Both the position numbers and the translations under genes were made by a program. Source: Bacillota bacterium (GTDB lineage Bacteria; Bacillota; Clostridia; TANB77; CAG-465). From it: a DNA stretch of 64,000 nucleotides. This document shows positions 15,096 through 53,453 of the stretch, in pieces (the first letter of the stretch is position 1; each line of letters opens with the position of its first letter). The DNA is taken from NCBI GenBank assembly GCA_023410645.1, contig JAEYPQ010000030.1:11680-75679 (forward strand), written 5' to 3'. The notes under the pieces are model-generated. The model was not told where the DNA came from, did no database searches, and was given only the letters and a program-made list of their open reading frames with translations.

Positions 15096-15749
15096 ATGGA
15101 ACCTTTTAATGAAAATAATATAATAAATTTGAGAGGAGTTGTATCATCTGAAGTAGAGTATAGTCATGAAGCATTTGACGAAAAATATTACAGATTTTTT
15201 GTTGACACTAAAAGACTTAGTGATTTAAGCGATACTTTACCAATAATAGTATCTGAAAAACTAATCAATATAGATGATATAAAAATTGGAGATGTCGTAT
15301 TTGTAAATGGTCAAGTAAGATCTCATAATCAACCAGTTGAAGATAAAAGAAGCAAATTAATCCTTTCAATTTTTACAAAAGAAATTAGAAAAGAAAGTAT
15401 AGAAGAAGACACTTCTTTAAATGAAGTTATTTTTCAAGGATTTATATGCAAAGAGCCTATTTATAGAAAAACACCACTTGGAAGAGAAATAGCTGATGTA
15501 TTAATAGCTGTAAATAGAGCATATAAAAAATCTGATTATATTCCTTGTATTTTATGGGGAAGAAATGCTAAGTTTTGTGAGTCTTTACCAATAGGAAGCA
15601 AAGTTAGTATAACAGGAAGAATGCAATCAAGAAAATATAGTAAAAAATTAAATGATGAAAATGTAAGAGAAATGACTGCATATGAAGTTTCTGCAAGTAT
15701 GTTCACACTTTTAAAAGATGATGAAAAAGAAGAGATGGCACAAATATAA
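15096..15749 (+). CDS. Tandem OB-fold single-stranded-DNA-binding-like protein
   Basis: Two consecutive SSB-like OB modules: residues 1-100 (INLRGVVSSE...GDVVFVNGQVRSHN) and 110-200 (VIFQGFICKEP...IPCILWGRNAKFC...GSKVSITGRMQSRKY). The pattern matches bacterial SSB (L.GRL...PE.R......W...AE......KGS.V.V.GRLQ.R.Y). Short acidic C-terminus DDEKEEMAQI. Preceded by the promoter TTTACA-17-TGaTATAAT and RBS AAAGGAGG. Confidence 0.5.
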   Translation: MEPFNENNIINLRGVVSSEVEYSHEAFDEKYYRFFVDTKRLSDLSDTLPIIVSEKLINIDDIKIGDVVFVNGQVRSHNQPVEDKRSKLILSIFTKEIRKESIEEDTSLNEVIFQGFICKEPIYRKTPLGREIADVLIAVNRAYKKSDYIPCILWGRNAKFCESLPIGSKVSITGRMQSRKYSKKLNDENVREMTAYEVSASMFTLLKDDEKEEMAQI

Positions 15750-15781: not shown

Positions 15782-16369
15782 CTAAATGTTATTTACTTTT
15801 TTTGTATATTTAAACTTTGAAGGATCAATAGTGTTACCTTTGACATCAAATAAAGAAAAATGCAAATGTGGGCCTGTTGTCCACCCATTTTGCAATCCAC
15901 TGGATAAAACTTTTGGACCAACATATCCAATTGTCTGACCTTGAATAATTTTTTCACCAACTTTTACAATTATTTTCTCAGACATATGACCATACATTGA
16001 TTTGGTACCATCAAAATGCAAAATAGTAACACATATTCCATAGCCACTTGTAAAACCACAAAAAGTTATAGTACCAGATTTGGTTGCGTAGATTTTTGAA
16101 TTTTCAGGTGCTGGAAAATCAATGCCATTATGAAAATTTTGTTTATTAAATAGCATTCTATAACCATAGTATGATGAAATATGTATTATATCTGTTGGAT
16201 AAATATAGTTTTCTGAATCAATATTTGAATTTAAACTTGAAAATATAAAAGAAATTAAAATGGAAGAAAAAACTAAAATAGAATAAAATTTTTTATACAT
16301 TACATCACCGATTGATATTTTAACATTTAAATTTGAAGTTGTAAATAAAAAAATAAAAAAATAAAACAA
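15782..16369 (-). CDS. Secreted M23 (LytM-type) peptidoglycan endopeptidase
   Basis: N-terminal signal/TM segment. M23 motifs HNGIDFPAP, YGHMSE and GPHLHFSLF. Confidence 0.75.
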   Translation of the reverse strand: MFYFFIFLFTTSNLNVKISIGDVMYKKFYSILVFSSILISFIFSSLNSNIDSENYIYPTDIIHISSYYGYRMLFNKQNFHNGIDFPAPENSKIYATKSGTITFCGFTSGYGICVTILHFDGTKSMYGHMSEKIIVKVGEKIIQGQTIGYVGPKVLSSGLQNGWTTGPHLHFSLFDVKGNTIDPSKFKYTKKVNNI

Positions 16370-16377
16370 TTTTCTAT

Positions 16378-16404
16378 TGCTTTTTTTCTTATTATTGATA
16401 TAAT
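16378..16404 (+). promoter_or_regulatory. Putative sigma-A promoter with extended -10 (TTGCTT...TGaTATAAT) for pilin-like gene 1
   Basis: TTGCTT at 16378-16383 and TGATATAAT at 16396-16404, upstream of RBS GAGGAGG and the ATG at 16435. Confidence 0.4.
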
Positions 16405-16434: not shown

Positions 16435-16854
16435 ATGAAAAACACTAGGAATAAAAAAATAGTATTTGAAATCTTATCTATAGTATTAATTTGTATCTTG
16501 TTTACTAGTTCGATTTTTGGATTAACACCATCAGAGCCTGGTAAAGGAAATGAGCTAACACCAATAACAGATTTAGCAGGATCAATTTGGGCAACTTTTG
16601 CAACTGTTGTTCAAGTAGCTGCAATTGTAGCAGTAGTACTTGCTGGAGTAAGATATATGTTTGCATCAGCAGATGCAAAAGCAGATATAAAAAAGCAAAC
16701 TATAACATTGGTTATTGGTGCAGTGTTAGTATTTGCTGCAGTACCACTTACCAAGTTGATTGTCGGTGCTGCAAAAGACATTTTAGACTCTAATAGTGGT
16801 TCTGCACCAAATATAGAAGTAGATCCACGTAATCCAAATCAAATGTCACAATAG
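16435..16854 (+). CDS. VirB2/TrbC-like pilin-family protein, paralog 1 (139 aa)
   Basis: Signal peptide/TM (ILSIVLICILFTSSIFG). Then hydrophobic helix 1 (AGSIWATFATVVQVAAIVAVVLAGV), a short charged loop (RYMFASADAKADIKKQ) and hydrophobic helix 2 (TITLVIGAVLVFAAVPL). This is the TrbC/VirB2 architecture. Assignment is by topology and motif, not by search. Confidence 0.5.
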   Translation: MKNTRNKKIVFEILSIVLICILFTSSIFGLTPSEPGKGNELTPITDLAGSIWATFATVVQVAAIVAVVLAGVRYMFASADAKADIKKQTITLVIGAVLVFAAVPLTKLIVGAAKDILDSNSGSAPNIEVDPRNPNQMSQ

Positions 16855-16949
16855 ATGTGTTATTATGTAGATTATTGCTCTGAATTTAGCTAATTTAGCT
16901 GAAAAATTAAAAAAATATATAAAATTTATATAAAAATTTGAGTAAACTA

Positions 16950-16977
16950 TTGATTTTTGCTAAAAAATGGGTATAAT
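16950..16977 (+). promoter_or_regulatory. Near-consensus sigma-A promoter (TTGATT-16-TATAAT) for pilin-like gene 2
   Basis: TTGATT at 16950-16955, TATAAT at 16972-16977. RBS AAGGAGG 7 nt before the ATG at 17012. Confidence 0.5.
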
Positions 16978-17011
16978 TAAATTAGGGATATAAAACTTAA
17001 GGAGGAATTTT

Positions 17012-17374
17012 ATGAAAAAGTCAAAGAAAATATTATTAAGAGTATTACCTGTATTAATGGTTATGTTTGTACTTATTGCTAGCCCTATTTTTGGAATAGA
17101 TGTTAAGGATCCAGATTCTCTAGGTGGTAAAGGATCAACTGATATTTCAAATGTTGCAGGTAACATTTGGCAAACAATTAGTACAGTAGTTCAAGTAGTT
17201 GCAATTGCAGCAGTAGTACTTGCCGGTGTAAGATATATGTTTGCATCAGCAGACGCAAAAGCAGATATTAAGAAACAAACAGTTATTTTAATAGTTGGAG
17301 CAGTGCTTGTATTTGCGGCAGTACCTTTAATGAAATTGATTGCTTCTGTATCAGATCAGATAATAAATCAATAA
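17012..17374 (+). CDS. VirB2/TrbC-like pilin-family protein, paralog 2 (120 aa; probable major subunit)
   Basis: Same architecture as paralog 1. The C-terminal 75 aa are about 85 percent identical to paralog 1 at both protein and nucleotide level (16606-16749 vs 17186-17330). Strongest promoter and RBS of the three. Followed by a hairpin plus T-run (17413-17450) that could attenuate read-through. Confidence 0.5.
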   Translation: MKKSKKILLRVLPVLMVMFVLIASPIFGIDVKDPDSLGGKGSTDISNVAGNIWQTISTVVQVVAIAAVVLAGVRYMFASADAKADIKKQTVILIVGAVLVFAAVPLMKLIASVSDQIINQ

Positions 17375-17472
17375 ATTATATTGGTGTTACTTAATTATTA
17401 TAGATTATAATTAAAAAAGATATTTTAAGTTTTAACTTATTATATCTTTTTTTATAGAAAGAAGTTGATAAG

Positions 17473-18147
17473 ATGAAAGAAAAAATTATTGCTTTTGTAT
17501 GCATATTTATGTTGTTATTTACAATTGGTACAAATGTACAAGCAGCAAATGCACAGACTACTGAAGGCACTCAAAAAAACTTTCTTGATGACATTTTTGG
17601 GCAGGGAAGCACTTGGTTTAATTCTGCAAAGGGTACAGAAAGTGAGAATAGTTTTGGAAATGCCATTAAAGATTATATTAATAATGGTGGTATAATGCAA
17701 GCCGTGCTTGCAGTTGGAAATCTCGTATTTGCTATTGTTACAGTTACATTAGGTGCAAAGTATATTTTTTCAGGTATAGAAGGTAAATCTATAATAAAAG
17801 AAACTTTGCCAACTTTTGTTGTTGGTGTAATTTTCTTTTATTTAGCTAGTAATTTAGTATTTTTCTTTACAAATGATGCAGGAACTGGTGTATTAAATAT
17901 TTTATTTGGTGGGACACCAAATTTCACCACAATATCAGGTAGTATTTGGTCTACAATTTCAATTGTAATAAATACGGTGTCTATTGCAGGCATTGTGTTT
18001 ATAGGACTTAGATACATGTTTGCTGGTCCTGATTCAAAAGCAGATATTAAAAAAAGCCTTCTACCAGTTACGCTTGGAATTATATTCGTTTATTGTGCAT
18101 TTCAGGTATTAAATTTTATAGTACAAGTTGGAAATGCAGCTATATAA
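17473..18147 (+). CDS. Tandem pilin-module protein (224 aa): signal peptide, soluble segment, then two VirB2/TrbC-like helix-loop-helix modules
   Basis: Signal peptide ending ...NVQAANA. Module A: IMQAVLAVGNLVFAIVTVTLGAKYIFSGIEGKSIIKETLPTFVVGVIFFYLASNLVFF. Module B: GSIWSTISIVINTVSIAGIVFIGLRYMFAGPDSKADIKKSLLPVTLGIIFVYCAF, which shares the RYMFA..D.KADIKK loop with paralogs 1 and 2. Confidence 0.45.
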   Translation: MKEKIIAFVCIFMLLFTIGTNVQAANAQTTEGTQKNFLDDIFGQGSTWFNSAKGTESENSFGNAIKDYINNGGIMQAVLAVGNLVFAIVTVTLGAKYIFSGIEGKSIIKETLPTFVVGVIFFYLASNLVFFFTNDAGTGVLNILFGGTPNFTTISGSIWSTISIVINTVSIAGIVFIGLRYMFAGPDSKADIKKSLLPVTLGIIFVYCAFQVLNFIVQVGNAAI

Positions 18148-18155
18148 TTAATAAA

Positions 18156-18198
18156 TTGTTACATAAAAATTACATTTATGTAACAATTTATTTTTTTG
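18156..18198 (+). terminator. Strong rho-independent terminator after the pilin-like gene triplet
   Basis: Perfect 12-bp stem TTGTTACATAAA / TTTATGTAACAA with 7-nt loop, followed by TTTATTTTTTTG. Confidence 0.75.
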
Positions 18199-18219
18199 TT
18201 TATTTTTGCTTGAAAATTG

Positions 18220-18248
18220 TTGATAAATTAGCGTATTTATGATAAAAT
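18220..18248 (+). promoter_or_regulatory. Putative sigma-A promoter (TTGATA-17-TGaTAAAAT) for the T4SS-like operon
   Basis: TTGATA at 18220-18225 and TAAAAT at 18243-18248 with upstream TG. RBS AGAGGGGGA before the ATG at 18298. Confidence 0.4.
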
Positions 18249-18297
18249 TTCTTAAAGTATGAATTATCATTACTAAAGAAGAGGGGGATATATTAAA

Positions 18298-18642
18298 ATG
18301 GGGAGAACTTATACGGTACCAAGAAGTGTAAAAGGTGAATCTAGATTATTATATATATTTTCAATAAGATCTTTTGTTTCTACTGTTGTATTTGGATTTG
18401 TGGGCTTTTTGATAGGAAGTTTGCTTTCACTTGTTGGAGCTAGTGGTTTAATTAAAGTTATAATGACTGCTGTCTTTGGAATAATTGGATATGGAATGGC
18501 AACACTAGTAATTCCGGATACACCTATTGTTGGAAACTTAAGAAAAGCTGGTGGAGAGCAGGTCGGTGAAATTTTACTTAGAATTATAACTTTTAAAAGA
18601 AGAAAGAAAATATATATTTATAGATATGGGGGAGATAAATAA
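18298..18642 (+). CDS. PrgI / VirB3-like small two-TM protein (114 aa)
   Basis: Size, position immediately upstream of the VirB4-like region, and two adjacent TM helices (VVFGFVGFLIGSLLSLVGA, IKVIMTAVFGIIGYGMATLVI) match the VirB3/PrgI/TcpE-like component of Gram-positive T4SS. Confidence 0.45.
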   Translation: MGRTYTVPRSVKGESRLLYIFSIRSFVSTVVFGFVGFLIGSLLSLVGASGLIKVIMTAVFGIIGYGMATLVIPDTPIVGNLRKAGGEQVGEILLRIITFKRRKKIYIYRYGGDK

Positions 18643-19958
18643 TGGATACAGTTACAATTATTGGTATTGTTTTAATTTTAGGATTTGGAATAGCTTTTAC
18701 AATAGCTATGATTATTCAAGGTAATAAAGCAAAGAAAAATGTTTCCAAGACTTCAAGTGATAAAACTTCAACACAAAAAGATTATAAGACAAATAAAAGT
18801 GGGGAAATACCTAAAAAAGATATATTAAATTTTATGGAGTTTGATAGAATTGTAGATGATATGATTTTACAAGAAAAAGAAAGCAAATATACTATGGTTG
18901 TTCAATGTAAGGGAATAAATTATGATCTTATGTCAGAAATCGAACAATTATCCGTTGAAGAAGGTTTTATAACTTTTTTAAATACTTTAAAATTTCCTGT
19001 ACAATTATATGTACAAGCAAGAGCAATTGATCTTAAAAAGAGTATGGAAATATATAAAGAAAATGTAGATGGTATTTCAAATCAATTTAATGATGCTGAA
19101 AATAGATTGAAAAATGTTGCTAGTAATCTAAATTCTACAAATGCTCAATTAAATGAAGCTAAAATGGAAAGAGAAAAATATTTGAATATGCTTGAATATG
19201 CTAATGACATTAAAAGATATATGGAAGTTTTAAGCCTAAATAAACATGTATTGCAGAGAAAATTCTATGTTGTAATCTCTTATCATAAATCTGAAGTTAC
19301 TGCTACATCAGAATTTACTAAAGAAGAATTACATGAGATATGTCATAGAGAATTATACACAAGAGCACAAACAATTATAAGTGCACTTTCTGCTTGTTCA
19401 GTATCTTCTAGAGTATTATCTTCAAACGAACTTGCAGAGTTATTATATATTTCATATAATAGGGATGATGAAAAATTAATTGATATAAAGACTGCATTGG
19501 ATTCTGGTTTTTATAGATTGTATTCCACATCTGAAGATGTATATGATAAAAAACAAAACCTAATGCAAAGAGAAATTGAAGAAGAGGCTAAAAGAAGAGT
19601 TACAGATGCAATAAAAGAAGCTTTAGATGCTGAAAAAATAAAAACTCCAGATGAATTAACTGAGGAATTTGAAGAAAGAGCTGATAGAGAAGCAATTACT
19701 ATAGTAAGAGATTCAGATATAGATGATGAATCTAAAGATAAACTTATAAATATAATTGCAGAAAATCATGTAGCAAAAGCAAATGTAAGAAAAGATATTA
19801 AAAAGGCTGGTTTAGATAATGAGCAAATTGATAATAAAGTAAATGCTGAAGATAATGATGAGCAAGCTGAATCAAAAGAAGAAAATAATAATATAGATAA
19901 TCAAAGTGAATTAAAAAATGATAAAATCATAAATAATGAAAATGATTCTATTATTTAG
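18642..19958 (+). CDS. T4SS-associated membrane-anchored coiled-coil protein with acidic C-terminal tail (438 aa)
   Basis: Start overlaps the upstream stop (ATAAATGG). One N-terminal TM helix. Residues 60-140 (FMEFDRIVDDMILQEKESKYTMVVQCKGINYDLMSEIEQLSVEEGFITFLNTLKFPVQLYVQ) resemble the N-terminal segment of Gram-positive VirB4 proteins as I recall it. Long coiled coil, then a D/E/N-rich tail. Confidence 0.35.
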   Translation: MDTVTIIGIVLILGFGIAFTIAMIIQGNKAKKNVSKTSSDKTSTQKDYKTNKSGEIPKKDILNFMEFDRIVDDMILQEKESKYTMVVQCKGINYDLMSEIEQLSVEEGFITFLNTLKFPVQLYVQARAIDLKKSMEIYKENVDGISNQFNDAENRLKNVASNLNSTNAQLNEAKMEREKYLNMLEYANDIKRYMEVLSLNKHVLQRKFYVVISYHKSEVTATSEFTKEELHEICHRELYTRAQTIISALSACSVSSRVLSSNELAELLYISYNRDDEKLIDIKTALDSGFYRLYSTSEDVYDKKQNLMQREIEEEAKRRVTDAIKEALDAEKIKTPDELTEEFEERADREAITIVRDSDIDDESKDKLINIIAENHVAKANVRKDIKKAGLDNEQIDNKVNAEDNDEQAESKEENNNIDNQSELKNDKIINNENDSII

Positions 19959-19971
19959 GAGGTAAAATACA

Positions 19972-21945
19972 ATGGGAAAAGATAAAAAAAATAAAAAAGG
20001 TAATAACACTCAAGAAGAACTTGTTAGAGCTAATGAAGAAAGTGTTAATTTTCTAGAATCAAATAAATCAAATTTAAAAGACTTAATATCACCTGCTGGA
20101 ATAGATGCAAGTCATTATGATTATATGGAGATATTCTCTAAAGTGTCTAGATATATTAGAACTTTCTATGTTACAACTTTACCTAGACAAGCATCTTTCC
20201 CTTATTTCTTATCAAATATATATGAATTTGGGGATGTAAATACTTCAGTATTTATAACTCCTATTTCGGAAACTGCATCACAAAGAGATTTAAATAAAAC
20301 TATTGTTGAGTTACAATCCGAAAGGTATGTTGCAGCAGATAGGGGAGATATAAATAGAGCGGCAGTTCTTGCAACTAAGCAATCTGAGGCTGAGGAGTTA
20401 AGAGATCAAATTGCTGCTGGATATAATAAACTATTTGAAGCTACAATTGTTGCTAGTTTATTTGCATATAGTAAAAATGAGCTTGATAAAGCATCTGAAC
20501 TTCTAGCAATGGAAGCTTCAAAAAATATGGTTGGAATAAAAGCTACTTGGGCAATGCAAGAAGAGGCTTTTCAAAGTAACCTACCTCTAAATAAAAATAA
20601 ATTAAATAGAAAACATACTTTTGATAGAGGGTCAATGGCAACAGTTTTTCCTTTTGTTTCTTCGGAAGTTGGACATGATATTGGTGTACCTATTGGAATA
20701 AATAAACAAACTGGATTACCTCTATTGTTTGATAATTTCCACTCTTCTCTTAATAATTATAATATGATAATATTTGGAAAATCTGGATCTGGTAAATCTG
20801 TTACAATTAAAACAATTATGGCAAGATCTTCAGTATTAATGGGAGTTGAAAACTTAGTTATAGATGCTGAAGGAGAATATTCAGTGGTTGCTGAGTCATT
20901 AAATGGAATAAATATAGTAATAAGTCCAAACAGTAATACAATAATAAACATATTCGACATCGAGCCAGAAACAGTAAAAGATGAAATAACTGGTAGGGAA
21001 AGAATAGTTTTAAATGTTGAAAATAAGGTTGAGGATGCAACACAATCTTTATTAACAATGGCTCGTGGTGCTACTAGAAGTCAGGAAGTAAATGAACTTA
21101 CAAAGCAGATAATTGCAGAAATAGTTGCAGAATTATATGCAAGAAGGAAAATTAAAAGTGATATAAATTCACTATATGAAGATGCAAATGAGTTAAATGT
21201 AACAAATAATTTTGTTGGTCTTAAGAAAAAAGAAATGCCGACAATAGGTGATTGGTATGATGTACTTGTAGAAAAAGCATCAGAAAATACCACAGAAACA
21301 TATGCATATCATTATAATTATTTACTTAAAGTAATGAAACAATATTGTAAAAAATTTGATGGTCAAATGTCTTATTTTGATGGTCAATCAACTTTTGAAT
21401 TGATGGATGGTAATCAATTTATAAATCTTAATCTTTCTCAACTTGAAGAAAAATTTGCAAGACCTTTGGCACAGCAAATACTCCTTTCTTGGGTATGGGA
21501 AAAGTATGTTAAGAAAAATAGCGAAAATAGAACTAAGGCAAGAAGAAAAAGGGTTCTTATAGATGAGGCATGGATGTTACTTGATTATCCTGAAGCAGTT
21601 CAATTTTTAAATACAATGGCAAGACGTGCTAGAAAAAGAAATGTTTCTCTTGCAGTTGTATCACAGAAATTCCAAGATTTCTATGAAAAGAAAGAAGCAC
21701 AAGCAGTTTTAACTTCTTCTGATACAAAATTATTTTTGGCTCAAGATAAATCTGAAATTGAATACTTAAAAGAAGTATTTAAATTAAGTGAAGGAGAAAC
21801 AGATTTCTTACTTACATGTTCAAGAGGTGAAGGTCTTATACGTATAGGTCAAGAATCAGCGGTAATTGCTATACAGCCAACACAAAAAGAATTTGAATTT
21901 GTTGAAACAAATTTGACAAATATAATTGCGCGTAAACAAAGCTAA
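19972..21945 (+). CDS. VirB4-family T4SS ATPase (TraE/PrgJ/TcpF-like, 657 aa)
   Basis: Walker A IFGKSGSGKSVT. Walker B in RVLIDEAWMLLD, the DEAW hallmark of VirB4/TrbE/CagE. N-terminal motif RTFYVTTLPRQASFPYFLSNIYEFGDVNTSVFITPI matches the conserved FYV..LP...W/FL....d.s.hI.P block of Gram-positive VirB4. Length matches pIP501 TraE-type VirB4. Confidence 0.8.
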   Translation: MGKDKKNKKGNNTQEELVRANEESVNFLESNKSNLKDLISPAGIDASHYDYMEIFSKVSRYIRTFYVTTLPRQASFPYFLSNIYEFGDVNTSVFITPISETASQRDLNKTIVELQSERYVAADRGDINRAAVLATKQSEAEELRDQIAAGYNKLFEATIVASLFAYSKNELDKASELLAMEASKNMVGIKATWAMQEEAFQSNLPLNKNKLNRKHTFDRGSMATVFPFVSSEVGHDIGVPIGINKQTGLPLLFDNFHSSLNNYNMIIFGKSGSGKSVTIKTIMARSSVLMGVENLVIDAEGEYSVVAESLNGINIVISPNSNTIINIFDIEPETVKDEITGRERIVLNVENKVEDATQSLLTMARGATRSQEVNELTKQIIAEIVAELYARRKIKSDINSLYEDANELNVTNNFVGLKKKEMPTIGDWYDVLVEKASENTTETYAYHYNYLLKVMKQYCKKFDGQMSYFDGQSTFELMDGNQFINLNLSQLEEKFARPLAQQILLSWVWEKYVKKNSENRTKARRKRVLIDEAWMLLDYPEAVQFLNTMARRARKRNVSLAVVSQKFQDFYEKKEAQAVLTSSDTKLFLAQDKSEIEYLKEVFKLSEGETDFLLTCSRGEGLIRIGQESAVIAIQPTQKEFEFVETNLTNIIARKQS

Positions 21946-21951
21946 TTAAGA

Positions 21952-22929
21952 ATGGGTGATGAAATGATTAAATTAAAGAATAAGAAACATATACTAATGA
22001 TTACAATTATTATACTTATGATAGTAGCATTAAATGTATTACCATTTAGTAACATTCATGCATATACGAATGATGCACCTCAGGCATCAGATGCTGAAAA
22101 TCTAGTAAAAGGTGCTATAGGATGGATATTATCCACTGGTGCTGGAGTTTTGGCTACTCCAATAACTTATGTTATAAATATGGTTAATGTTGTAATATTT
22201 AGCATTCTATATACTGTATTTGTAGGTTCTAAGATTGTAGATACTATATTTTCATTTCCAACACCTGATAATGTAATTTTTAATAGAATAGGCTTTTTTG
22301 ACCCTAATTTTATTAATCCTACCCCTGTAGAGAGTGCACCGGTAGTACAAATAAAAACTGTAATTCAAAGTCTATATTATTCTTTCTTTACAGTAGCAAT
22401 AACAATATTTGTTATTGCAGCACTTGTTATTGGAATAAAGCTTGCACTATCTACAATAGCTTCTGAAAAAGCTCAATTTAAGAATGCATTGAAAAATTGG
22501 GTTATGGGTATAGTTTTATTATTTACAATACATTTTGTCATGGCAGGAATTTTTGCAATAAATGAAGAGATAGTTAAAATTGCATCTAACTATGCTGGAG
22601 ACAATATTAGTTTTAATATACAAGTTACTTCTGGAATTCCTGTGGTAGGAAATGCACTGTCTAGTATTATAAGAGGATTTAGTGATTTAATTGGAAGTAA
22701 TAATCCAATTGATGCTTTTCAAATGAATGGATATTTAGGATTAATAATACAATTTTTAGTTAAGTCAGTTGGTGGAGATTTATTATCTTCAATAGCACTT
22801 ACGATAATTTTATTCCAGACTGTTGCGATAGTTGCTATGTATATTAAAAGACTATTTTATTGTATAATCCTTGGAGTAATAGCGCCTCTTGTTGTAGCAG
22901 CAGATGTAGTAAAGAAATCTATAGGTTAA
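21952..22929 (+). CDS. Polytopic membrane protein, VirB6/TrbL-like candidate (325 aa)
   Basis: Signal/TM at N-terminus, then at least 5 TM helices with short loops. Positioned right after the VirB4-like gene as in Tn916/ICEBs1/pCW3-type loci. No catalytic motif. Confidence 0.4.
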   Translation: MGDEMIKLKNKKHILMITIIILMIVALNVLPFSNIHAYTNDAPQASDAENLVKGAIGWILSTGAGVLATPITYVINMVNVVIFSILYTVFVGSKIVDTIFSFPTPDNVIFNRIGFFDPNFINPTPVESAPVVQIKTVIQSLYYSFFTVAITIFVIAALVIGIKLALSTIASEKAQFKNALKNWVMGIVLLFTIHFVMAGIFAINEEIVKIASNYAGDNISFNIQVTSGIPVVGNALSSIIRGFSDLIGSNNPIDAFQMNGYLGLIIQFLVKSVGGDLLSSIALTIILFQTVAIVAMYIKRLFYCIILGVIAPLVVAADVVKKSIG

Positions 22930-22941
22930 AGGAGGATTAAT

Positions 22942-24081
22942 ATGGGAGAAAAAAATAATAAAAAGGGATTATTTGAAAATTGGTTTTCCATGTTTGTTTC
23001 CAATGTTTTTATACAAAGCTTTCAAGCAGTATTTTTAATGTTTCTATTGCAATTTATAGCAGGGGTACAAAAATCAAATGCATCTGATATGCTTATTGCA
23101 TTATTAACTATTGCTGGACTTGCTGGTATAATTAAATTTGAAAAATTAGTCCAAGAAATATTTCAAATTAAAGAATCTAAAAGTGGTAGTTTCGGTAGAA
23201 ACTTCTATAGAACTATGCAGGGTATAAAAAGTGGTTCTGATCTAGTAAGTAGAACTTCAGAGCCTTTTAAAAACTATGCAAATGTTAAGAGAAATAGAAT
23301 TAAATTAGACAATGAAATAGCGGCAAGAAAAATCACTGATAAACCAAAAACTCAGGATAGTGGTGTTGGTACTAGTACAGGTGGTACAGGTGCTACAGTT
23401 CAAGGCACTGCTGCAAGTCAAATCTTAAATCCTCAATCTGGAGGGACTGCTAGACAAATTGTAGACGCTAATGGAAATCCTATTTCAAGTGGAAGATTTT
23501 CAACTGGACCAGTTGTTGCAGCTAGTTCTAATGGACAAAATATTTCAGGTGGAAGTTTTGAAAAAATGGAAGCTAGCTTAGACAGATTAGCAAAAATTAT
23601 GGAAAAGAGTACTGGAGTTTCTGATAATTCTTCTAAATCGATACCAGAGTTAGAAAAACAAAGAGATGAATTAAAACTTCAAGAATCTAAATTAGGAATG
23701 CAAAGATTTACTAGACTTGGAACAACGCTTGCTGCTGTTGGTGGAGCTTTTGGCGCAAATGATGGAGATTTTGGGGAGGCTATGACTCTTGCAAATGTTG
23801 TTGATAAACCTTTGGATTCTGCAAGTGACAAGATGATTAATAGTAGGGTTTATAAACCAAGATACAAAGAGGCACTCCAAGAGTATAACCAAGCTATACA
23901 AACAAAAAGCCCTGATGCTATGGAAGCATTCAAAAAACTTGAATCAGCAAGTAAAACAATGCATAATTCACTTGCAAGAGAAGCTGAAGATTTTGCTAGA
24001 AGCGCCGTAAATTCGTTTACACCTTCTAAAGAAGCAAGAAAAAAGCGTAGAGTAGATATTGATAGTATAGATGTAATTTAG
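22942..24081 (+). CDS. Membrane protein with two N-terminal TM helices, Gly/Thr/Ser-rich linker and C-terminal coiled coil (379 aa)
   Basis: RBS AAAGGAGG before the ATG. Low-complexity segment GVGTSTGGTGATVQGTAASQ. Coiled-coil C-terminus. No recognisable enzymatic motif. Confidence 0.35.
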   Translation: MGEKNNKKGLFENWFSMFVSNVFIQSFQAVFLMFLLQFIAGVQKSNASDMLIALLTIAGLAGIIKFEKLVQEIFQIKESKSGSFGRNFYRTMQGIKSGSDLVSRTSEPFKNYANVKRNRIKLDNEIAARKITDKPKTQDSGVGTSTGGTGATVQGTAASQILNPQSGGTARQIVDANGNPISSGRFSTGPVVAASSNGQNISGGSFEKMEASLDRLAKIMEKSTGVSDNSSKSIPELEKQRDELKLQESKLGMQRFTRLGTTLAAVGGAFGANDGDFGEAMTLANVVDKPLDSASDKMINSRVYKPRYKEALQEYNQAIQTKSPDAMEAFKKLESASKTMHNSLAREAEDFARSAVNSFTPSKEARKKRRVDIDSIDVI

Positions 24082-24091
24082 GAGAGTTTAT

Positions 24092-24670
24092 ATGTTTAAA
24101 CAATTAAATAAAGGAACTAATATAATAATTATAGTAGTATTTGCACTTGCCTGTTTGAGTTTTATTATAAATGCCATTATAGGTATATTTAAAAAACCAG
24201 AGTTATTGAATACTGATGATATAACTCAATATATAATAACTGATAATGTTGTTGATGAAAATGGAAATATAACAAAAGCTTCTAATATAGTTAAAGATTA
24301 TAATACTTTTTACACTTTGCAAGATGCTACTGAAAACTTTATACAATATATAGTCGATCAAAAATTTTCTCAAACATATAGTGTACTTTCTGATGAAATT
24401 AAAAGTAAATATTCTAAATCAGAGTACGAAGATAAGATTAAAGTTGTATATGATAAAAACTTTTCAGTCACTTATAGTGATGAGAATATAAAAAATGGAC
24501 AAGATAATGGAATTAATAATTTTAATAACTCAAATAATTTGGTAAATTTATATAAAATATCTGAAAATGAATATATTTGTGAGACTAAGAATGTACATTC
24601 AAAAATTTTTAAACTAGGTATAAGATTGGAAAATAATAATACATATAAAGTTTTTTATATTGATTTTTAA
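24092..24670 (+). CDS. N-terminally anchored extracytoplasmic protein (192 aa), possible VirB8-like scaffold
   Basis: Single N-terminal TM (IIIIVVFALACLSFIINAIIGIF) followed by a soluble mixed alpha/beta domain. Role inferred only from context. Confidence 0.3.
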   Translation: MFKQLNKGTNIIIIVVFALACLSFIINAIIGIFKKPELLNTDDITQYIITDNVVDENGNITKASNIVKDYNTFYTLQDATENFIQYIVDQKFSQTYSVLSDEIKSKYSKSEYEDKIKVVYDKNFSVTYSDENIKNGQDNGINNFNNSNNLVNLYKISENEYICETKNVHSKIFKLGIRLENNNTYKVFYIDF

Positions 24671-24680
24671 GAGGTGTTTG

Positions 24681-25556
24681 ATGGAAGAACAAAAAAATAG
24701 TAAAATAATATTAGGTTTATCCGCTATATTTATTTTGGTATTTGTGATTATTGCTATATTTGCATTAGTACAAATATGGAAACCTAAAGACAATACTGAA
24801 GAAAAAATTGTTTTATCGTCTAGTAATGATAAAATAGGTACATATAAGAAAATTAAGTATACTGAAAATCAGCAAATTTCCCAGTATATAACTCTTGTCA
24901 CTAATGCTATTGTTAGTAGTGATACTGATAAATTATATTCTATGTTAAATGAGGAATATAGAGATTATTTTAGCATTGATAAAACAAAAGCAGAAAACAT
25001 TTTTAAGACAAGAGGATTTCTTGGAAGAATGTTAACTTCTGACAAATATACTAAGGCTACAATAGATGGTAGAAGCATTTATATAGTTCCTTTAAAGACT
25101 TCCGTAAATGGAGCAATATATGATAATGTGATAATAACTGAATATTCACCAAGAAAATTTTCTATTGCTTTTGATGATTTCCTTACTTATGATAAATCAG
25201 AAAAAGTATATTATAGAGATGAACTTAAATTAGTTGTATATAATAAAGTTAATTTTATAACTTCGGTAAGTGCTAAAGTTAAGATTACAAATTTATCAGA
25301 TGAGAGAATAACAATAAATGATTCACACAAATATGAGAATTTCTACATAAGATTTAATGATCAAAGCGAAGTATTAACAAATTTGAGCTTTTTATCTGGT
25401 GAATCTTATGAGATGATAAAAAATCAGGAATTGGCTTTTGATGCTTCTTTTGAAATTCCTGCATTATCTCATCAGGCAATAAATTCATATGTATTAAAAG
25501 ATGTTAAATATATGAAAAATGGTGCCACAAAAGATTTAGAATTTAATATAAAATAG
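24681..25556 (+). CDS. N-terminally anchored extracytoplasmic protein (291 aa), possible VirB8/TcpC-like
   Basis: ATG at 24681 follows GAGGTG (24671-24676); the six-frame ORF opens at 24660. Single TM (ILGLSAIFILVFVIIAIFALV) then a soluble domain. Size and topology are like TcpC/VirB8-like proteins, by inference. Confidence 0.3.
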   Translation: MEEQKNSKIILGLSAIFILVFVIIAIFALVQIWKPKDNTEEKIVLSSSNDKIGTYKKIKYTENQQISQYITLVTNAIVSSDTDKLYSMLNEEYRDYFSIDKTKAENIFKTRGFLGRMLTSDKYTKATIDGRSIYIVPLKTSVNGAIYDNVIITEYSPRKFSIAFDDFLTYDKSEKVYYRDELKLVVYNKVNFITSVSAKVKITNLSDERITINDSHKYENFYIRFNDQSEVLTNLSFLSGESYEMIKNQELAFDASFEIPALSHQAINSYVLKDVKYMKNGATKDLEFNIK

Positions 25557-25595
25557 GTAGTTTGTTTGCTATATAAAAAAGCGAGGTGATATTAT

Positions 25596-28500
25596 TTGGA
25601 CGATTTTGAAAAAGAGTACGAAGAAGAGCTACTTAGACAACAACAAGAAGAACAAAGAAATCAAGATATAAATATTAGGGATACATATGATAAATTAAAA
25701 AGTGCACAAGAAAAATACCAAAAACTTTCTGACAAAATTAATAGTTCAAATAATAATCTTAAACAAGGCTCTTTAAATAGAGATGCAGCAAATAATATAA
25801 ATAAATCAGCTGGAAAAAAAGCTACTGAGCAAGGTGCTAAATCAGTAAGTAATGAAGCTGCTAAGAGTGCTGGAAAAGAAGCTGCAAAAACTGCTGGAAA
25901 AGAGGCTGTAAAAAAAACTGGTGAAGAAGCTGCGAAAGAGGCGGGGAAGCAGGTAGCAAAAACTGCAGCAAAAGAAGCAGCTAAAAAGGGAGCTGAAACT
26001 GCTGCAGCTGGTACAGGAGTTGGTATACCTATTGCTGCTGCAATTGAGGCTGCTGACCAGGCACAAAAGCTAAAAGTAAAAGCAGAAGAAAAAATAAAGG
26101 AAACTACTGGAATAGATTTAAAAGAATCAAGAAAAAAGAGGAGAAAAATTGTCATAGCATTAGCACTTAGTTTGTTATTTATACTTTTAACGACAAATTA
26201 TGTTTCGAGTCAAGATTTAAATACTACACTTAAATCTTTAATTGCTAGAAGAGAAGCAAGAAATGAAAAGAAGTTAATACAATTTACAGATTCCGAATAT
26301 GATGATTTAATAAACAAAGATTATGTAGATTTACCATCAGGTTACTCTGATAATTCTGTAAATGATGAAAAGTATGCAGATCCAGGTTATAAAAGAATGC
26401 TCGAATATGCATATAGTAATAATTATGATTCTTTTTTAGCTGGTAAAACTACTATAGATAATCAGACAAAAAAAAGCGAAGTTGCTGCAAGTAACACAAG
26501 AAAATATTTAGAAGCAGAAAGACTTAATTTCAATAAAATAAAATGGTATTCATACAAAAGTAACTATACATATAATCATTCATCAAGTTTAGCAAACGAT
26601 GTTGTACCAACATTCTTAAATTCAAGTACAGGTTCAATTCAGGCAAATGGTAAAATTACGGATTCAGAGCTAAATATTCCAAAGTTATCTGAATATGACG
26701 TAAATCCAGGAAGTAATACAAAGCAAAAAGAAGATATGTATATTGATTTACTATCAAATTATATGCAAAAATGGTTTATTCCATATTTAATGATGATTGA
26801 TACGCAGTCAAAGGAATTTACAATTAATGAAGTAATGGAAAAAATGTATAGTCCTGTTAACGTAACTTTATACCAGATTAATAGAGATACCAAAAAAACG
26901 AAAACTACTTACTACCTAGAGTGTGAGGTAGTTATTAGGACAATTACAACTACGATTGGACCTAATGGTGAAATAAGTACCAGTTCACATATTTCAGACA
27001 GAAGAAATTCTAATACTAAGAATGATCCTGTTGGAACAACTAGTTATAATAATGGTAATACTACAATAGAAAAGACAGTAACTTCAAATGGTAAAATTGC
27101 AACTGATTCTTCTGGAAATCCTATGGTAGCATCTGTTACTGTTGAAAGAAATATATCACCATATAAGTATGTACCTAAGATAACTTATTGCGAGGGATTT
27201 TATGATATAATAAGTGCAAGATACAAAATTGATCCTATAAATGAGGCAATAACTCCAAAAAGCACATCTGAAACGCCTCTTACATCGTCGGATGCTAATA
27301 CTTCATATATTACAAAGACTGAGATTTGGGATGAAAATATATTAAATGATGTATATGAAAAGAAAGATTATAAAGTCTCATACTATTCAGATGAAGATTA
27401 TAAGAACTTGGGAAGAAAAGTATCAAGAGTTGAATGGTATCAAGATTATGGAAATTATTTATATAAATCTGGAAAATCTGATGTTGATTTAAAGATCTAT
27501 GACAATGAGATATATCCATTAAAAGTTACAAATAAAGGTGAAACTATTGATGGATATCAAAATGATTATTTATTGAGTTTAGAAGAAGCCTATGACTCAT
27601 ACTCAAATTCAAAAGGATATTCGTATGATGATATGTATTTTGCATATACATTAATAAGTGAATATTATAGTAATATAAATAGTCTTGGAAGTGATGTAAA
27701 TTTAAATTTAAATGGTATACCTTATGATGGATTTGCTTGGCCAGTTGAGATAACAGCAGAAAATCCAGGTACTAATGTTATAAATACACTTTTTGGACTT
27801 ACACCAGCTTATGGAAGTAGTCATACTGGAATAGATATATCAAGTGGAAATCTAAGATATAAGGAAGGAAACTTAACTAAAGGACCTAAAATTTTGGCGG
27901 CACATGATGGAGTTGTTACAGCTGTTTCTAACACTGCCACATCTGATTCAGTATATGATTCTAGCACTGGTCAATTTACTTATATATCACCATATAACTT
28001 TGTAAATATTAGAACACAAGATGGCACTTATACAACTCAATATGGGCATTTATCTGAAATTAATGTTAAGGTAGGAGATACTGTAAAAAGGGGACAAGTT
28101 ATAGGAAGGATGGGTACAACTGGTTATTCTACGGGAGTTCATTTGCATTTTGAGATAATAGATTCTACTGGTGAAAGACTAGATCCTTTGAATTATTATA
28201 TTACAGATCCAGAATATGGAAGTATTAACCGTAACTCAATAACTTCAATGCCAAGTGGTTATGTATATTTAAGGCCTAAGACATTTAGTATATCTGGAAA
28301 TTCACAAATTTCTGATATGATAGCAAAGGCTATAGAATTAGCAAATAAAAAGAATATTTTATATAGACAAAACGGAAGACAAACGGCTAGCACTATAGTT
28401 GGATTAGATAATATTACTCAGGCAGATTGTAGTTCATTTGTATATTCTTTATTTAAAACATACTTAAATATAAACGTCGGAATGACTTCTGATGATATAA

Positions 28501-29183
28501 AAAGTAGAGGCGATAATAAGCATTCTGAAAATGGTTGGACTGCCGAATCAGGAGCCATAAATTCTGATTATTCTAAACTTCAACCAGGTGATATATTATG
28601 GCGCAGTGGACACGTTGGACTATATGTTGGTGATGGAAAACAAGTTGATCTTGGTGGTCCTGGAGGGGAAAATTCTGAAGCAGATCCTAATTGGAAAGGG
28701 CCAATTTATGATACAGACATAGATGGCTATACACATTATATAAGATATGTGAATAAAAATGCATTAAATGGAGTTAGTGCAGAAGATATCTTATTAATGT
28801 CTAGAATTATTGCACAAGAAGCTGGATACAATATGGAAGATTGTTTAGCTGTTGCAGCTGTAATTGTTAATAGAGTAAAAAGTCAAAGCAATGATTTTAA
28901 AGATGAAGACACGGTTCGCAAAGTTATTTATCCTGCAGGAGATGATATGGCTAAAAATAGATTGCAATGGGCATCAATAGGTGGAGTAGAATTTAATAAA
29001 GAACCTGATAAGAGTAAGGCACCGTATAAAGCTGCATTAATGGCCATAGCTGGTGAAGATCCAACAGGAGGAGCACTATATTTCTATAGTCCAAGAGGTG
29101 GATTTTATAGTGAATGGCATGAATCCTTAAAATATTTGTATACGTCACCAAATGGTCAAAGATTCTTTACACCAGAAGAATAG
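25596..29183 (+). CDS. Multidomain peptidoglycan hydrolase (VirB1/PrgK/CwlT analogue, 1195 aa)
   Basis: N-terminal coiled coil plus Lys/Ala-rich degenerate 8-aa repeats (AGKEAAKT-like, 25800-26000). One TM (IVIALALSLLFILLTT), then a large extracytoplasmic region. M23 domain: HTGIDISSG, AAHDGVVTAV, YGHLSE, GVHLHFEI. NlpC/P60 domain: ADCSSFVYSLF with Cys, GHVGLYVGDG with His. SleB-type cell wall hydrolase (Hydrolase_2) domain: LMSRIIAQEAG...LAVAAVIVNRVKS...GGALYFYSP. Confidence 0.75.
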   Translation: MDDFEKEYEEELLRQQQEEQRNQDINIRDTYDKLKSAQEKYQKLSDKINSSNNNLKQGSLNRDAANNINKSAGKKATEQGAKSVSNEAAKSAGKEAAKTAGKEAVKKTGEEAAKEAGKQVAKTAAKEAAKKGAETAAAGTGVGIPIAAAIEAADQAQKLKVKAEEKIKETTGIDLKESRKKRRKIVIALALSLLFILLTTNYVSSQDLNTTLKSLIARREARNEKKLIQFTDSEYDDLINKDYVDLPSGYSDNSVNDEKYADPGYKRMLEYAYSNNYDSFLAGKTTIDNQTKKSEVAASNTRKYLEAERLNFNKIKWYSYKSNYTYNHSSSLANDVVPTFLNSSTGSIQANGKITDSELNIPKLSEYDVNPGSNTKQKEDMYIDLLSNYMQKWFIPYLMMIDTQSKEFTINEVMEKMYSPVNVTLYQINRDTKKTKTTYYLECEVVIRTITTTIGPNGEISTSSHISDRRNSNTKNDPVGTTSYNNGNTTIEKTVTSNGKIATDSSGNPMVASVTVERNISPYKYVPKITYCEGFYDIISARYKIDPINEAITPKSTSETPLTSSDANTSYITKTEIWDENILNDVYEKKDYKVSYYSDEDYKNLGRKVSRVEWYQDYGNYLYKSGKSDVDLKIYDNEIYPLKVTNKGETIDGYQNDYLLSLEEAYDSYSNSKGYSYDDMYFAYTLISEYYSNINSLGSDVNLNLNGIPYDGFAWPVEITAENPGTNVINTLFGLTPAYGSSHTGIDISSGNLRYKEGNLTKGPKILAAHDGVVTAVSNTATSDSVYDSSTGQFTYISPYNFVNIRTQDGTYTTQYGHLSEINVKVGDTVKRGQVIGRMGTTGYSTGVHLHFEIIDSTGERLDPLNYYITDPEYGSINRNSITSMPSGYVYLRPKTFSISGNSQISDMIAKAIELANKKNILYRQNGRQTASTIVGLDNITQADCSSFVYSLFKTYLNINVGMTSDDIKSRGDNKHSENGWTAESGAINSDYSKLQPGDILWRSGHVGLYVGDGKQVDLGGPGGENSEADPNWKGPIYDTDIDGYTHYIRYVNKNALNGVSAEDILLMSRIIAQEAGYNMEDCLAVAAVIVNRVKSQSNDFKDEDTVRKVIYPAGDDMAKNRLQWASIGGVEFNKEPDKSKAPYKAALMAIAGEDPTGGALYFYSPRGGFYSEWHESLKYLYTSPNGQRFFTPEE

Positions 29184-29197
29184 GGGAGTAGAAGTAG

Positions 29198-30028
29198 ATG
29201 AATGAAAAAGATGATATAAAGTTTAATAAAAATAATAGTGGTGTTCATAAAAGAACACCACGAAAAATAAAATATTCTTTGGAACAGTTAGAACAAATAA
29301 AAAAAGAAGAACAAGTATTAGATATGTATGTTGAAAGCATTGATGATAGTCTGAATATGATAGGTATTGTAGGGACAGATATAAAAGCGATGATACCAAG
29401 AGATGAAGCTTCAAGTATTGTTGGAGATGATGGACTAGTTGAAGAAAAATTTATTGTTAATAAAAAAGGAAAAATAATACCTACATGTATAAAAGAAATA
29501 ATAAAAAATGGTGATAATATTGAATTGATATTGTCAAAGAAGATACTTGAACTTAAAGTAAGACGTTGGATGTATATGCATTTGAAACCAGGTATGAAAC
29601 TTAAAGGTGTTGTTGTAAGTACTACTGAATATGCAGCTTTTGTTGATGTTGGTGGAGGAGTAACAGGTATATTAAAATTATCTGATATTTCTGATGTATC
29701 ATTACAACATTCTAATGATGTTTTTAAATTAGGTCAAAGAATAGAAGTTATGGTAAAGAAATTCGATAGAGATACTGGAAGAATTGAATTAACATATAAA
29801 GAATTGTTAGGTTCTTTTGAAAACAATGTTAAAAATCTAAAAGAGGGAGACATTGTTGACGGTATTATACGAAATAGAATTAAGACTGGTGTGTTTGTTG
29901 AATTAAAACCTAATCTTGTTGGTCTTGCTGAACATGTTAATGGAGTGGAATATGGACAAAAGGTACTAGTTAGTATAAAAAGAATTATTCCAGAAAAGAA
30001 AAAGATTAAACTTGTAATCATAGGATAA
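29198..30028 (+). CDS. S1 RNA-binding domain protein with tandem S1/OB repeats (276 aa)
   Basis: Two clear S1 modules: MKLKGVVVSTTEYAAFVDVGGGVTGILKLSDIS...RIEVMVKKFDRDTGRIELTYK and EGDIVDGIIRNRIKTGVFVELKPNLVGLAEHVNGVEYGQKVLVSIKRII. Starts 15 nt after the hydrolase stop, so probably co-transcribed. Confidence 0.55.
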   Translation: MNEKDDIKFNKNNSGVHKRTPRKIKYSLEQLEQIKKEEQVLDMYVESIDDSLNMIGIVGTDIKAMIPRDEASSIVGDDGLVEEKFIVNKKGKIIPTCIKEIIKNGDNIELILSKKILELKVRRWMYMHLKPGMKLKGVVVSTTEYAAFVDVGGGVTGILKLSDISDVSLQHSNDVFKLGQRIEVMVKKFDRDTGRIELTYKELLGSFENNVKNLKEGDIVDGIIRNRIKTGVFVELKPNLVGLAEHVNGVEYGQKVLVSIKRIIPEKKKIKLVIIG

Positions 30029-30140: not shown

Positions 30141-30217
<77 letters not shown>

Positions 30218-33045: not shown

Positions 33046-33166
33046 TAATATTTTTTAAAACTCAATAATAAATTATATATTATTATTGAGTTTTTTATGT
33101 GTAAATTTTGTTATATATTTACTAAGAAAATATTAAGTGATATAATTATATAAAAGGATGGAATTT

Positions 33167-52342: not shown

Positions 52343-52429
52343 GCCGAAATGGTGGAATTGGCAGACGCGCTAGACTCAAAATCTAGTGGTAGCAATACCG
52401 TGTGGGTTCGAGTCCCACTTTCGGCACCA
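52343..52429 (+). tRNA. tRNA-Leu (anticodon CAA), long variable arm, CCA encoded
   Basis: Acceptor GCCGAAA/TTTCGGC, anticodon stem CTAGA/TCTAG with loop CTCAAAA, variable-arm stem GGTA/TACC, T-arm GTGGG-TTCGAGT-CCCAC. Followed by hairpin GATGAAG...CTTCATC plus T-run (52440-52467). Confidence 0.85.
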
Positions 52430-53366: not shown

Positions 53367-53453
53367 GCCGAAATGGTGGAATTGGCAGACGCGCTAGACT
53401 CAAAATCTAGTGATAGCAATATCGTGTGGGTCCGAGTCCCACTTTCGGAACCA
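53367..53453 (+). tRNA. Degenerate second copy of tRNA-Leu(CAA) (probable pseudo-tRNA)
   Basis: First 47 nt identical to the copy at 52343. Four substitutions in the 3' half: variable-arm stem GGTA/TACC becomes GATA/TATC (compensatory pair), T-loop TTCGAGT becomes TCCGAGT (loss of U55), and acceptor 3' TTTCGGC becomes TTTCGGA (G1:A72 mismatch). Followed directly by TTTTTTG. Confidence 0.5.

Follow-up and report, generated by a model that had tools for sequence, protein, structure and literature searches.

Type IV secretion systems (T4SS) of monoderm bacteria have been described as systems without VirB2 pilins. Guglielmini et al. (2014) reported that the Firmicutes-type systems (MPF-FATA) are without pilin homologues and stated that monoderms lack VirB2 (PMC4027160). 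Quinonero-Coronel et al. (2025) named one exception – the Patescibacteria, whose relaxase-less chromosomal T4SS have 2–11 VirB2-like genes – and left the origin of these pilins open, "given their absence in MPF-FATA" (PMC12102498). A December 2025 review describes the Patescibacteria systems as unique among monoderms in their potential for conjugative pili (PMC12857230). The locus described here lies in a stretch of 64,000 nucleotides from a Bacillota bacterium (assembly GCA_023410645.1, contig JAEYPQ010000030.1, positions 11,680–75,679), called the window below. This 64 kb of one contig is low in GC (about 21–32%) and has three consecutive genes, pil1, pil2 and pil3, that encode VirB2-like proteins. 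They probably make up the pilin array of a domesticated chromosomal T4SS whose role is not conjugation and whose VirB2-like subunits form a wall-spanning tube or pilus. A first-pass annotation of the window, made from the sequence without database searches, had remarked that VirB2-like subunits are undescribed for Gram-positive T4SS. This agrees with the papers above (PMC4027160, PMC12102498, PMC12857230), and literature searches for VirB2 in Bacillota or in monoderms, or under either Pfam family (PF04956, PF18895), turned up no paper on the system in Clostridia.

The closest described analogue is the T4SS of Patescibacteria such as Southlakia epibionticum and Nanosynbacter lyticus TM7x (PMC12102498, PMC12857230). 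Both systems are chromosomal, both have monoderm-type VirB3-, VirB4- and VirB6-like parts, and in both a tandem array of VirB2-like genes is near virB4. A relaxase is usually absent there and is absent from the window here, and the hosts of both are reduced-genome, mostly uncultured organisms. The differences begin with the hosts, which are labelled Clostridia (Bacillota) here, and the window shows no VirD4-like gene. Members of the array are 56–60% identical, compared to 25% on average and 54% at most in arrays from candidate phyla radiation (CPR) genomes. Unlike the CPR arrays, this one is closed by a conserved two-module pilin and has a core homogenised by gene conversion. It is also accompanied by a large VirB1-type hydrolase, while VirB1 is absent from most VirB2-bearing CPR genomes.

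With Firmicutes conjugation systems of the MPF-FATA type (pCF10 Prg/Pcf, pIP501, C. difficile CTn) the cluster has in common PrgI/VirB3-like, VirB4 and VirB6-like proteins, a VirB1-like hydrolase, and no outer-membrane core complex. Those systems reportedly have no VirB2 homologue, with adhesins instead, and carry a coupling protein and a relaxase (PMC4027160).

Pilin genes and their family

The three open reading frames (ORFs) of 139, 120 and 224 aa listed in the first-pass annotation are present at 16435–16854 (pil1), 17012–17374 (pil2) and 17473–18147 (pil3), all on the + strand, as are all features below unless marked. The pil1 gene encodes a predicted TrbC/VirB2-family propilin of 139 aa made up of a signal peptide of ~28 aa (ending in IFG), a variable segment, helix 1, the loop RYMFASADAKADIKK, helix 2 and a 21-aa C-terminal extension. 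The pil2 gene encodes a predicted propilin of 120 aa in the same family, the nearest of the array to the family consensus and a candidate for the major subunit. In both pil1 and pil2 the helices are separated by a loop, RYMFASADAKADIKKQT, and preceded by a hydrophobic, Sec-type signal peptide and a short variable segment (hydropathy, alignment). The AlphaFold2 (AF2) model of pil2 (pLDDT, its confidence score, 75.8) has helices at 3–28, 43–81 and 86–118. The pil3 gene encodes a pilin-like protein of 224 aa with two modules in tandem – a signal peptide (VQA/ANA) is followed by four hydrophobic helices, with the hairpin loops KYIFSGIEGKSIIKE and RYMFAGPDSKADIKK. The hairpin motif that had been noticed in the three proteins is real by both alignment and hydropathy, with an invariant loop of the RYMFASAD–KADIKK type.

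A profile search had been named beforehand as a check on the proposal that these are VirB2/TrbC-family, pilin-like subunits. Against the Pfam profile PF04956, whose cutoff is 27.9 bits, the score is 32.4 bits for pil1 and 36.7 bits for pil2, with both matches spanning profile positions 1–97 of 98. There are weaker matches of both to T4SS_pilin (PF18895) and to the NCBIfam Mycoplasma pilin-like conjugal transfer protein. In pil3, two domains were detected with a family hidden Markov model (HMM) built in the present analysis; together with the alignments, they confirm the two modules that had been described after its signal peptide. Precomputed PF04956 matches are found on pil3 orthologues, and among the 24 pil3 homologues the N-terminal module is the better conserved one. 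These sequence matches place pil1 and pil2 in the TrbC/VirB2 family and pil3 as a covalent tandem of two such modules. The family assignment is not new, because automated annotation already names the proteins TrbC/VirB2, while the biological context in Clostridia appears undescribed.

A word-indexed search with pil2 found 589 homologues, nearly all with a precomputed PF04956 match, and the few that bear names are named TrbC/VirB2 (Pfam, NCBI, JGI annotation). When 1.84 billion cluster representatives were searched exhaustively with a profile, 4133 matched at E ≤ 1e-3, 891 of them at E ≤ 1e-10, and the matches include proteins of 3 to 5 tandem modules. Neither a profile search of PDB sequences nor fold searches brought up solved pilins, the two-helix hairpin being too non-specific to discriminate. 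In 58 of the pil2 homologues, 21 core positions are invariant (W53, T55, Q61, G72, R74–A78, K83, A84, I86, K87, G96 and others), and variation is found in the post-signal N-terminus and the C-terminus. The -3/-1 residues at the end of the signal peptide (V/I-F-A/G) are also conserved in these 58, and indicate a predicted cleavage site.

The Gram-negative members of PF04956, such as TrbC of RP4 and VirB2 of Agrobacterium, have several features in common with these proteins beyond the above-threshold profile match: a long signal peptide, two hydrophobic helices, a basic loop, and a position at the head of a virB3–virB4 operon. The systems differ in that the envelope here is of the Gram-positive type, there is no VirB5, VirB7, VirB9, VirB10 or VirB11, tandem-module forms exist, and no evidence for cyclisation was found.

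The family has other unusual forms. Examples (library proteins P0155, P0156 and P0160; L019:6200-7192; L049:5595-6626) are proteins with 3–5 tandem pilin modules, of which P0156 has five IGIKYM-GS-EEKAEYKK hairpins within 450 aa, and single-module pilins with C-terminal extensions of 180–200 aa. The last 17 residues of pil1 (SAPNIEVDPRNPNQMSQ, encoded at 16801–16851) are identical in the orthologue of a sister-species contig (L084:8596-9018), despite 75% identity over the whole protein. Tails of at least 12 aa are found in 6 of the 136 single-module pilins, each of them different. The pil1 tail could be a processing or recognition peptide.

The secretion cluster and its distribution

Related loci were taken as the best 80 of 377 GTDB species genomes with VirB4 relatives, at 67–85% VirB4 identity. 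In all 80, a pilin array of 2–5 genes is linked to genes for VirB3-like, VirB4 and VirB6-like proteins. The gene order in L002–L062 is SSB, M23 peptidase (on the opposite strand), 1–4 single-module pilins, a two-module pilin, and genes for PrgI-like, TraC-like, VirB4 and VirB6-like proteins, ending after further genes in that for the S1 protein. In most of these the two-module pilin closes the array and is directly upstream of the PrgI-like gene. The remaining loci, L063–L081, have 3–5 single-module pilins. Because the array layout recurs in related loci, the pilin triplet is one instance of a general array. The two-module fusion gene is not a local accident but an old conserved component of most of them. 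This layout is found in about 60 species of Clostridia, uncultured and low in GC. A metagenomic contig from a sister species (L084) is collinear from asd to the hydrolase gene, has the same three pilin genes, and shares the full flanks including pheST.

All 80 related loci are from metagenome-assembled genomes of uncultured gut bacteria, labelled Clostridia, Clostridium or Clostridiaceae, save one labelled Bacillota and one Lachnospiraceae. These Bacillota-type labels argue against a Patescibacterial host. The hosts may belong to the GTDB order TANB77; no paper linking CAG-465 or CAG-921 to TANB77 was found. A paper on a "conserved pilin" of TANB77 was considered as a description of the pilin locus and rejected, as it concerns a Tad-type pilus cluster and has no mention of VirB2 or T4SS (PMC11680825).

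Downstream of the array is a PrgI/VirB3-like small membrane protein (18298–18642), which matches PF12666 below the cutoff (19.2 bits) and keeps its position in 80 of the 80 related loci. It is followed by a bitopic TraC-like protein of 438 aa (18642–19958; PF26593 among its precomputed matches) and a VirB4-family ATPase (19972–21945). The best NCBIfam matches of the ATPase are NF045971 (the CD1110 family, 233.9 bits) and NF045975 (Mycoplasma ICE VirB4, 211 bits), both below their equivalog cutoffs, and it also matches TraG P-loop, AAA_10 and DUF87. It is the only protein of the cluster with a Walker A motif. The polytopic protein encoded next (21952–22929) is VirB6-like by hydropathy and a match to NF045848 (the MMCAP2_0566 family, E 3e-5). 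Residues 133–196 of this protein form a weak pilin-like hairpin (PF18895, 25.8 bits versus a cutoff of 26.6; hhalign E 0.0019), echoing the homology noted before between VirB6 and VirB2 and between CedA and CedA1 (PMC9905601).

Three membrane-anchored proteins of 379, 192 and 298 aa (22942–25556) are partly conserved in related loci. By hydropathy the last two are bitopic, and these two may have a VirB8-like role. The only match among the three is a weak NTF2-like one (E 0.002), and none has a Walker A motif. The last gene of the cluster encodes a cell-wall hydrolase of 1195 aa (25596–29183) with M23, NlpC/P60 and SleB-type Hydrolase_2 domains, which by its domains is the apparent functional counterpart of VirB1/PrgK.

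The integrative and conjugative elements (ICE) of Mycoplasma have a trio of genes that these proteins match weakly: a pilin-like protein (NF045849, the Mbov_0395 family, 21.2 bits), the MMCAP2_0566 family and the VirB4 (Mbov_0397), in all cases below equivalog cutoffs. The Mycoplasma systems are on mobile ICEs in wall-less cells.

Pfam and NCBIfam scans of the proteins of the 64-kb window found no relaxase, coupling protein or integrase, and there are no repeat boundaries in it. The cluster is bordered by housekeeping genes at a conserved chromosomal site. Upstream are pheS, pheT, a two-OB SSB of the PRK05813 type (15096–15749; Pfam SSB, and 269 bits against NCBIfam NF004476), whose linkage to the cluster holds in 42 related loci, and an M23 peptidoglycan peptidase (15782–16369, - strand; PF01551, 85.9 bits), which points away from the pilin array and is syntenic in most related loci. 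Downstream are an S1-domain RNA-binding protein (29198–30028), also linked to the cluster in related loci, a tRNA-Arg gene and pepF. Elsewhere the window has genes for SMC/RecN-like, Clp ATPase, FBPase, RNase R, TrmB, YchF, MurJ-like, Mur ligase and Ddl proteins, along with nine tRNAs. The conjugation system proposed at first is not supported.

Several other features of the window and of the related loci were noted. M23 peptidase domains are found three times in the 64 kb (15782–16369 on the - strand, 25596–29183 and 43682–44389), and two of these flank or lie inside the T4SS cluster. In 26 related loci, a gene for a TraX-family membrane protein (PF05857, 74.7 bits; L046:1754-2656) is between pgi and the SSB–M23–pilin array; no copy was found in the 64-kb window by tblastn. 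The enzyme responsible for N-acetylation of F-pilin is a member of the TraX family. Twelve related loci have a conserved protein of 346 aa just 3' of the S1 gene (L060:20438-21478), 69–100% identical among loci. In its place, the window has the tRNA-Arg(TCT) gene (30141–30217) and an orphan ORF of 270 aa (30348–31160). A pair of tRNA-Leu(CAA) genes (52343–52429 and 53367–53453) brackets a gene for a 267-aa ATPase (52493–53296; AAA_21 and ABC-type matches), which may be a small insertion or duplication. A polytopic protein of 820 aa with a Wzy_C (O-antigen ligase-like) domain is encoded at 33158–35620, in the stretch of lowest GC in the window (21–23%).

The nearest VirB4 proteins on plasmids are 39–42% identical and are found in Clostridium beijerinckii and C. 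botulinum (L082, L083), in plasmid clusters typed non-mobilizable. In each cluster a small ORF takes the place of the pilin gene, upstream of a PrgI-sized gene, and its product has a signal peptide as well as two hydrophobic helices (L082:7101-7511; L083:7102-7485). These were considered as pilin homologues, but this was unsupported – one matches PF18895 at E 0.0027, the other has no match, and the hhalign probability is 0.2.

Expression signals and evolution of the array

There are promoter-like sites upstream of pil2 (TTGATT-16-TATAAT, 16950–16977) and ahead of the PrgI–VirB4 operon (TTGATA-17-TAAAAT with an upstream TG, 18220–18248), both identified by match to the consensus. An extended -10-like element (TGATATAAT, 16396–16404), read from the sequence and without statistical support, is 30 nt upstream of pil1. 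The hexamers pointed out before for pil2 and the ATPase operon are present. However, such matches are no more frequent than expected by chance in this AT-rich DNA (13 found versus 21.2 expected from shuffled sequence), and because they are not enriched over shuffles the sites carry no weight alone. Shine-Dalgarno sequences are strong for pil1 (GGAGG) and pil2 (AGGAGG) and weak for pil3.

An AT-rich hairpin follows pil2 (17410–17462), with arms at 17410–17431 and 17434–17455 and the 3' arm running into a T-run, and is a candidate partial terminator. Its local stem has a folding free energy of about -12 to -15 kcal/mol, though with a z of only -1.07 it is not significant alone; the hairpin and T-run had been noticed correctly, and they gain support because the position is conserved in other species. 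Following pil3 there is an intrinsic terminator (18150–18207) with a perfect stem of 18 bp (18150–18167 and 18175–18192) rather than the 12 bp first given, a 7-nt loop and a U-rich tail. It folds at -16.4 kcal/mol with a z of -5.3, and none of 200 shuffles fold as well. Over the 80 related loci, hairpins with T-runs are stronger after pilin genes than in other same-strand intergenic regions (median -13.2 versus -7.75 kcal/mol, p = 1.4e-4), and -12 kcal/mol or lower is reached by 65% of the intergenic elements after pilin genes versus 41% elsewhere. The ribosome-binding sites (RBS) and this enrichment agree with the layout suggested in the first-pass annotation, of a major pilin with variants.

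Comparison of the window with the sister contig L084 shows that the cluster is functional and under strong purifying selection, and that the pilins are its most plastic and fastest-evolving part. VirB4 is 98% identical, with a ratio of non-synonymous to synonymous substitution (dN/dS) of 0.02. SSB (96%, dN/dS 0.07), pheT (89%, 0.11), PrgI-like (90%, 0.12) and pil3 (84%, 0.15) are intermediate, and the highest ratios are those of pil2 (75%, 0.24) and pil1 (75%, 0.27). The core of pil2 has a dN/dS of 0.09, and its N- and C-terminal segments change fastest.

The pil1 and pil2 genes share a DNA repeat (16606–16749 versus 17186–17329) that is 82.6% identical over 144 nt, close to the earlier estimate of about 85% over some 145 bp; a repeat finder gives 195 nt of 78% identity, including a core of 71 nt with 92%. 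The N-terminal regions of the two had been called unrelated, which is wrong: the proteins align end to end at 56–60% identity, with 41% across the signal peptide and variable part. The repeat had been explained by recent duplication or gene conversion. A recent duplication does not hold, as L084 already has both paralogues and the N-terminal part of each pairs with that of its orthologue, while gene conversion is supported by site patterns among four sequences, pil1 and pil2 of the window and of L084.

In that comparison, 45 sites group the orthologues, and most of these fall within the signal peptide and variable region; 14 group the genes of the same genome, concentrated in helix 1 and the loop, and 3 have the third pattern. 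Genome-grouping and orthologue-grouping sites number 10 versus 6 in alignment columns 55–93 and 0 versus 30 in columns 1–54 (Fisher p = 2e-6), and several of the former are synonymous. This significant spatial split and the synonymous sites indicate that the pil1/pil2 duplication is old and that the helix-1/loop core was homogenised by gene conversion after speciation. The tract would run approximately from helix 1 to the loop in pil1 (16585–16700) and over the partner region of pil2 (17165–17280). Co-evolution of the proteins alone, without gene conversion, was considered and is less likely, given that several of the genome-grouping sites are synonymous. The four-taxon test was needed because the excess of identical codons in pil1–pil2 relative to between-species pairs is only borderline (0.66 versus 0.53 +/- 0.09, with 5.3% of pairs at least as high).

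Across species, divergence of SSB is correlated with that of S1 (rho 0.79) and divergence of VirB4 with that of pil2 (rho 0.76), while SSB and VirB4 are nearly independent (rho 0.12). As T4SS divergence is decoupled from that of the flanks, this suggests that the whole T4SS block (16435–29183) is occasionally replaced between species at a fixed chromosomal site. Individual loci depart in both directions: L025 has the closest flanks (pheS 92%, SSB 88%, S1 85%) but a VirB4 of 75% and a pil2 of 40%, while in L002–L011 SSB is 50–63% identical but VirB4 80–85%.

Function of the system and its meaning

By analogy with VirB2, TraA and CedA1/TedC, the propilins would be inserted by Sec and then cleaved after IFG/VFA. 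They would pool in the membrane, from which VirB4 would extract them for stacking on the VirB6-like platform into a lipid-containing tube, and the tube would cross a channel that the hydrolase cuts in the wall. The invariant loop would line the lumen, with the variable termini facing outward. The bulk subunit would be pil2, possibly co-assembling with pil1 and made in excess through its own promoter and strong RBS, followed by a leaky terminator; pil3 may act in few copies, as an adaptor or nucleator. Another architectural likeness is with the DNA importers Ced and Ted of archaea, which have VirB2-like pili (PMC9905601) and are also domesticated, relaxase-less T4SS of VirB2-, VirB6- and VirB4-like proteins. 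As in TedC there is a predicted signal-peptidase-type cleavage site in the pilin, and as in Ced/Ted a pilin-like hairpin in the VirB6-like protein (CedA1/TedC; PMC9905601); the bacterial wall and dedicated hydrolase are the difference here. The likeliest roles, going by proposals for the Patescibacteria and Ced/Ted, would be contact-dependent exchange with other cells or DNA uptake.

Several points weigh against a domesticated, pilus-forming system. The filament is a prediction from the genes, and since VirB2 is also needed in Gram-negative systems that have no pilus (PMC12857230), membership in the family is no proof of polymerisation. The pil3 protein is below Pfam thresholds (its C-terminal module scores 22.9 bits against PF18895, cutoff 26.6), and its AF2 model is poor (pLDDT 59.5). 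The PrgI-like and VirB6-like assignments rest on sub-threshold matches. A relaxase or coupling protein could be encoded elsewhere in the genome, and the 346-aa protein of 12 related loci has a marginal match to Replic_Relax (PF13814, 26.7 bits versus a cutoff of 25.3).

The main rival, which we consider rather unlikely, is that the subunits, although of this family, remain in the membrane or envelope as parts of a translocation channel, with no extracellular filament. The need for VirB2 even without pili fits this (PMC12857230), and so does the hairpin inside the VirB6-like protein (compare PMC9905601), which suggests that such modules can serve as parts of a channel; proteins in which 2 to 5 modules are covalently fused would also fit poorly into a regular helical filament. 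The expression signals point the other way, as strong RBSs together with promoter-like sites and terminators of their own would suit a protein produced in large excess. Fast-changing termini around an invariant core fit surface exposure, and the presence of a giant wall hydrolase in the operon points to passage through the wall.

It is improbable that these are the conjugative pilus genes of an ICE, or of an ICE remnant, transferring DNA to recipients, as the first-pass annotation had framed them. The VirB4 does belong with conjugation-type families (CD1110 and Mycoplasma ICE), there is an SSB gene adjacent and a tRNA-Arg gene at the far end, and the marginal Replic_Relax protein and the divergence of the T4SS block independently of its flanks, which implies some horizontal exchange of the block, are also in keeping with a mobile element. 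Against this, the window has no relaxase, coupling ATPase, integrase or repeat boundaries, and the position between SSB and S1 is identical in the chromosomes of dozens of species, with the full flanks including pheST shared by the sister contig. The dN/dS of 0.02 in VirB4 is a further argument against it, as is the result of a tblastn search with pil2, which had no match in 72,556 plasmids.

That these are unrelated small membrane proteins (holin-like or immunity proteins) resembling pilins in hydrophobicity is close to refuted: there are weak sub-threshold matches to lambda holin and other membrane families, and structure searches are non-specific, but the TrbC/VirB2 matches are above the curated threshold over the full profile, the linkage to VirB3-like, VirB4 and VirB6-like genes holds in every related locus, and there are no phage genes nearby.

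A Clostridia T4SS of monoderm type that begins with a VirB2-family array contrasts with the published single-exception view (PMC4027160, PMC12102498, PMC12857230), and bears directly on the question of where the VirB2 genes of Patescibacteria originated. A second domesticated T4SS from a reduced-genome lineage is a natural case for asking what such systems do. Experimental targets include the core loop of pil2, the tandem-module subunit, the hydrolase and, in relatives, the TraX-family neighbour. If the hosts are TANB77, the array would represent abundant surface-exposed proteins of a clade that has been linked to immunotherapy response via a different, Tad-type pilus (PMC11680825).

With domesticated pilin genes as the preferred reading, it is possible, though we would not call it likely, that a large clade of gut Clostridia, uncultured and low in GC, has retained by vertical inheritance a T4SS that builds VirB2-type pili and has neither a relaxase nor a coupling-protein gene within the 64 kb covered. 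If true, this would be the second monoderm lineage with a VirB2-pilus T4SS after the Patescibacteria. VirB2 pilins would then be original to the Firmicutes-type (MPF-FATA) T4SS, not borrowed from diderms, and the Firmicutes would be the likely source of the Patescibacteria system. The Clostridia hosts, like the epibiotic Patescibacteria, may depend on cell contact or DNA uptake.

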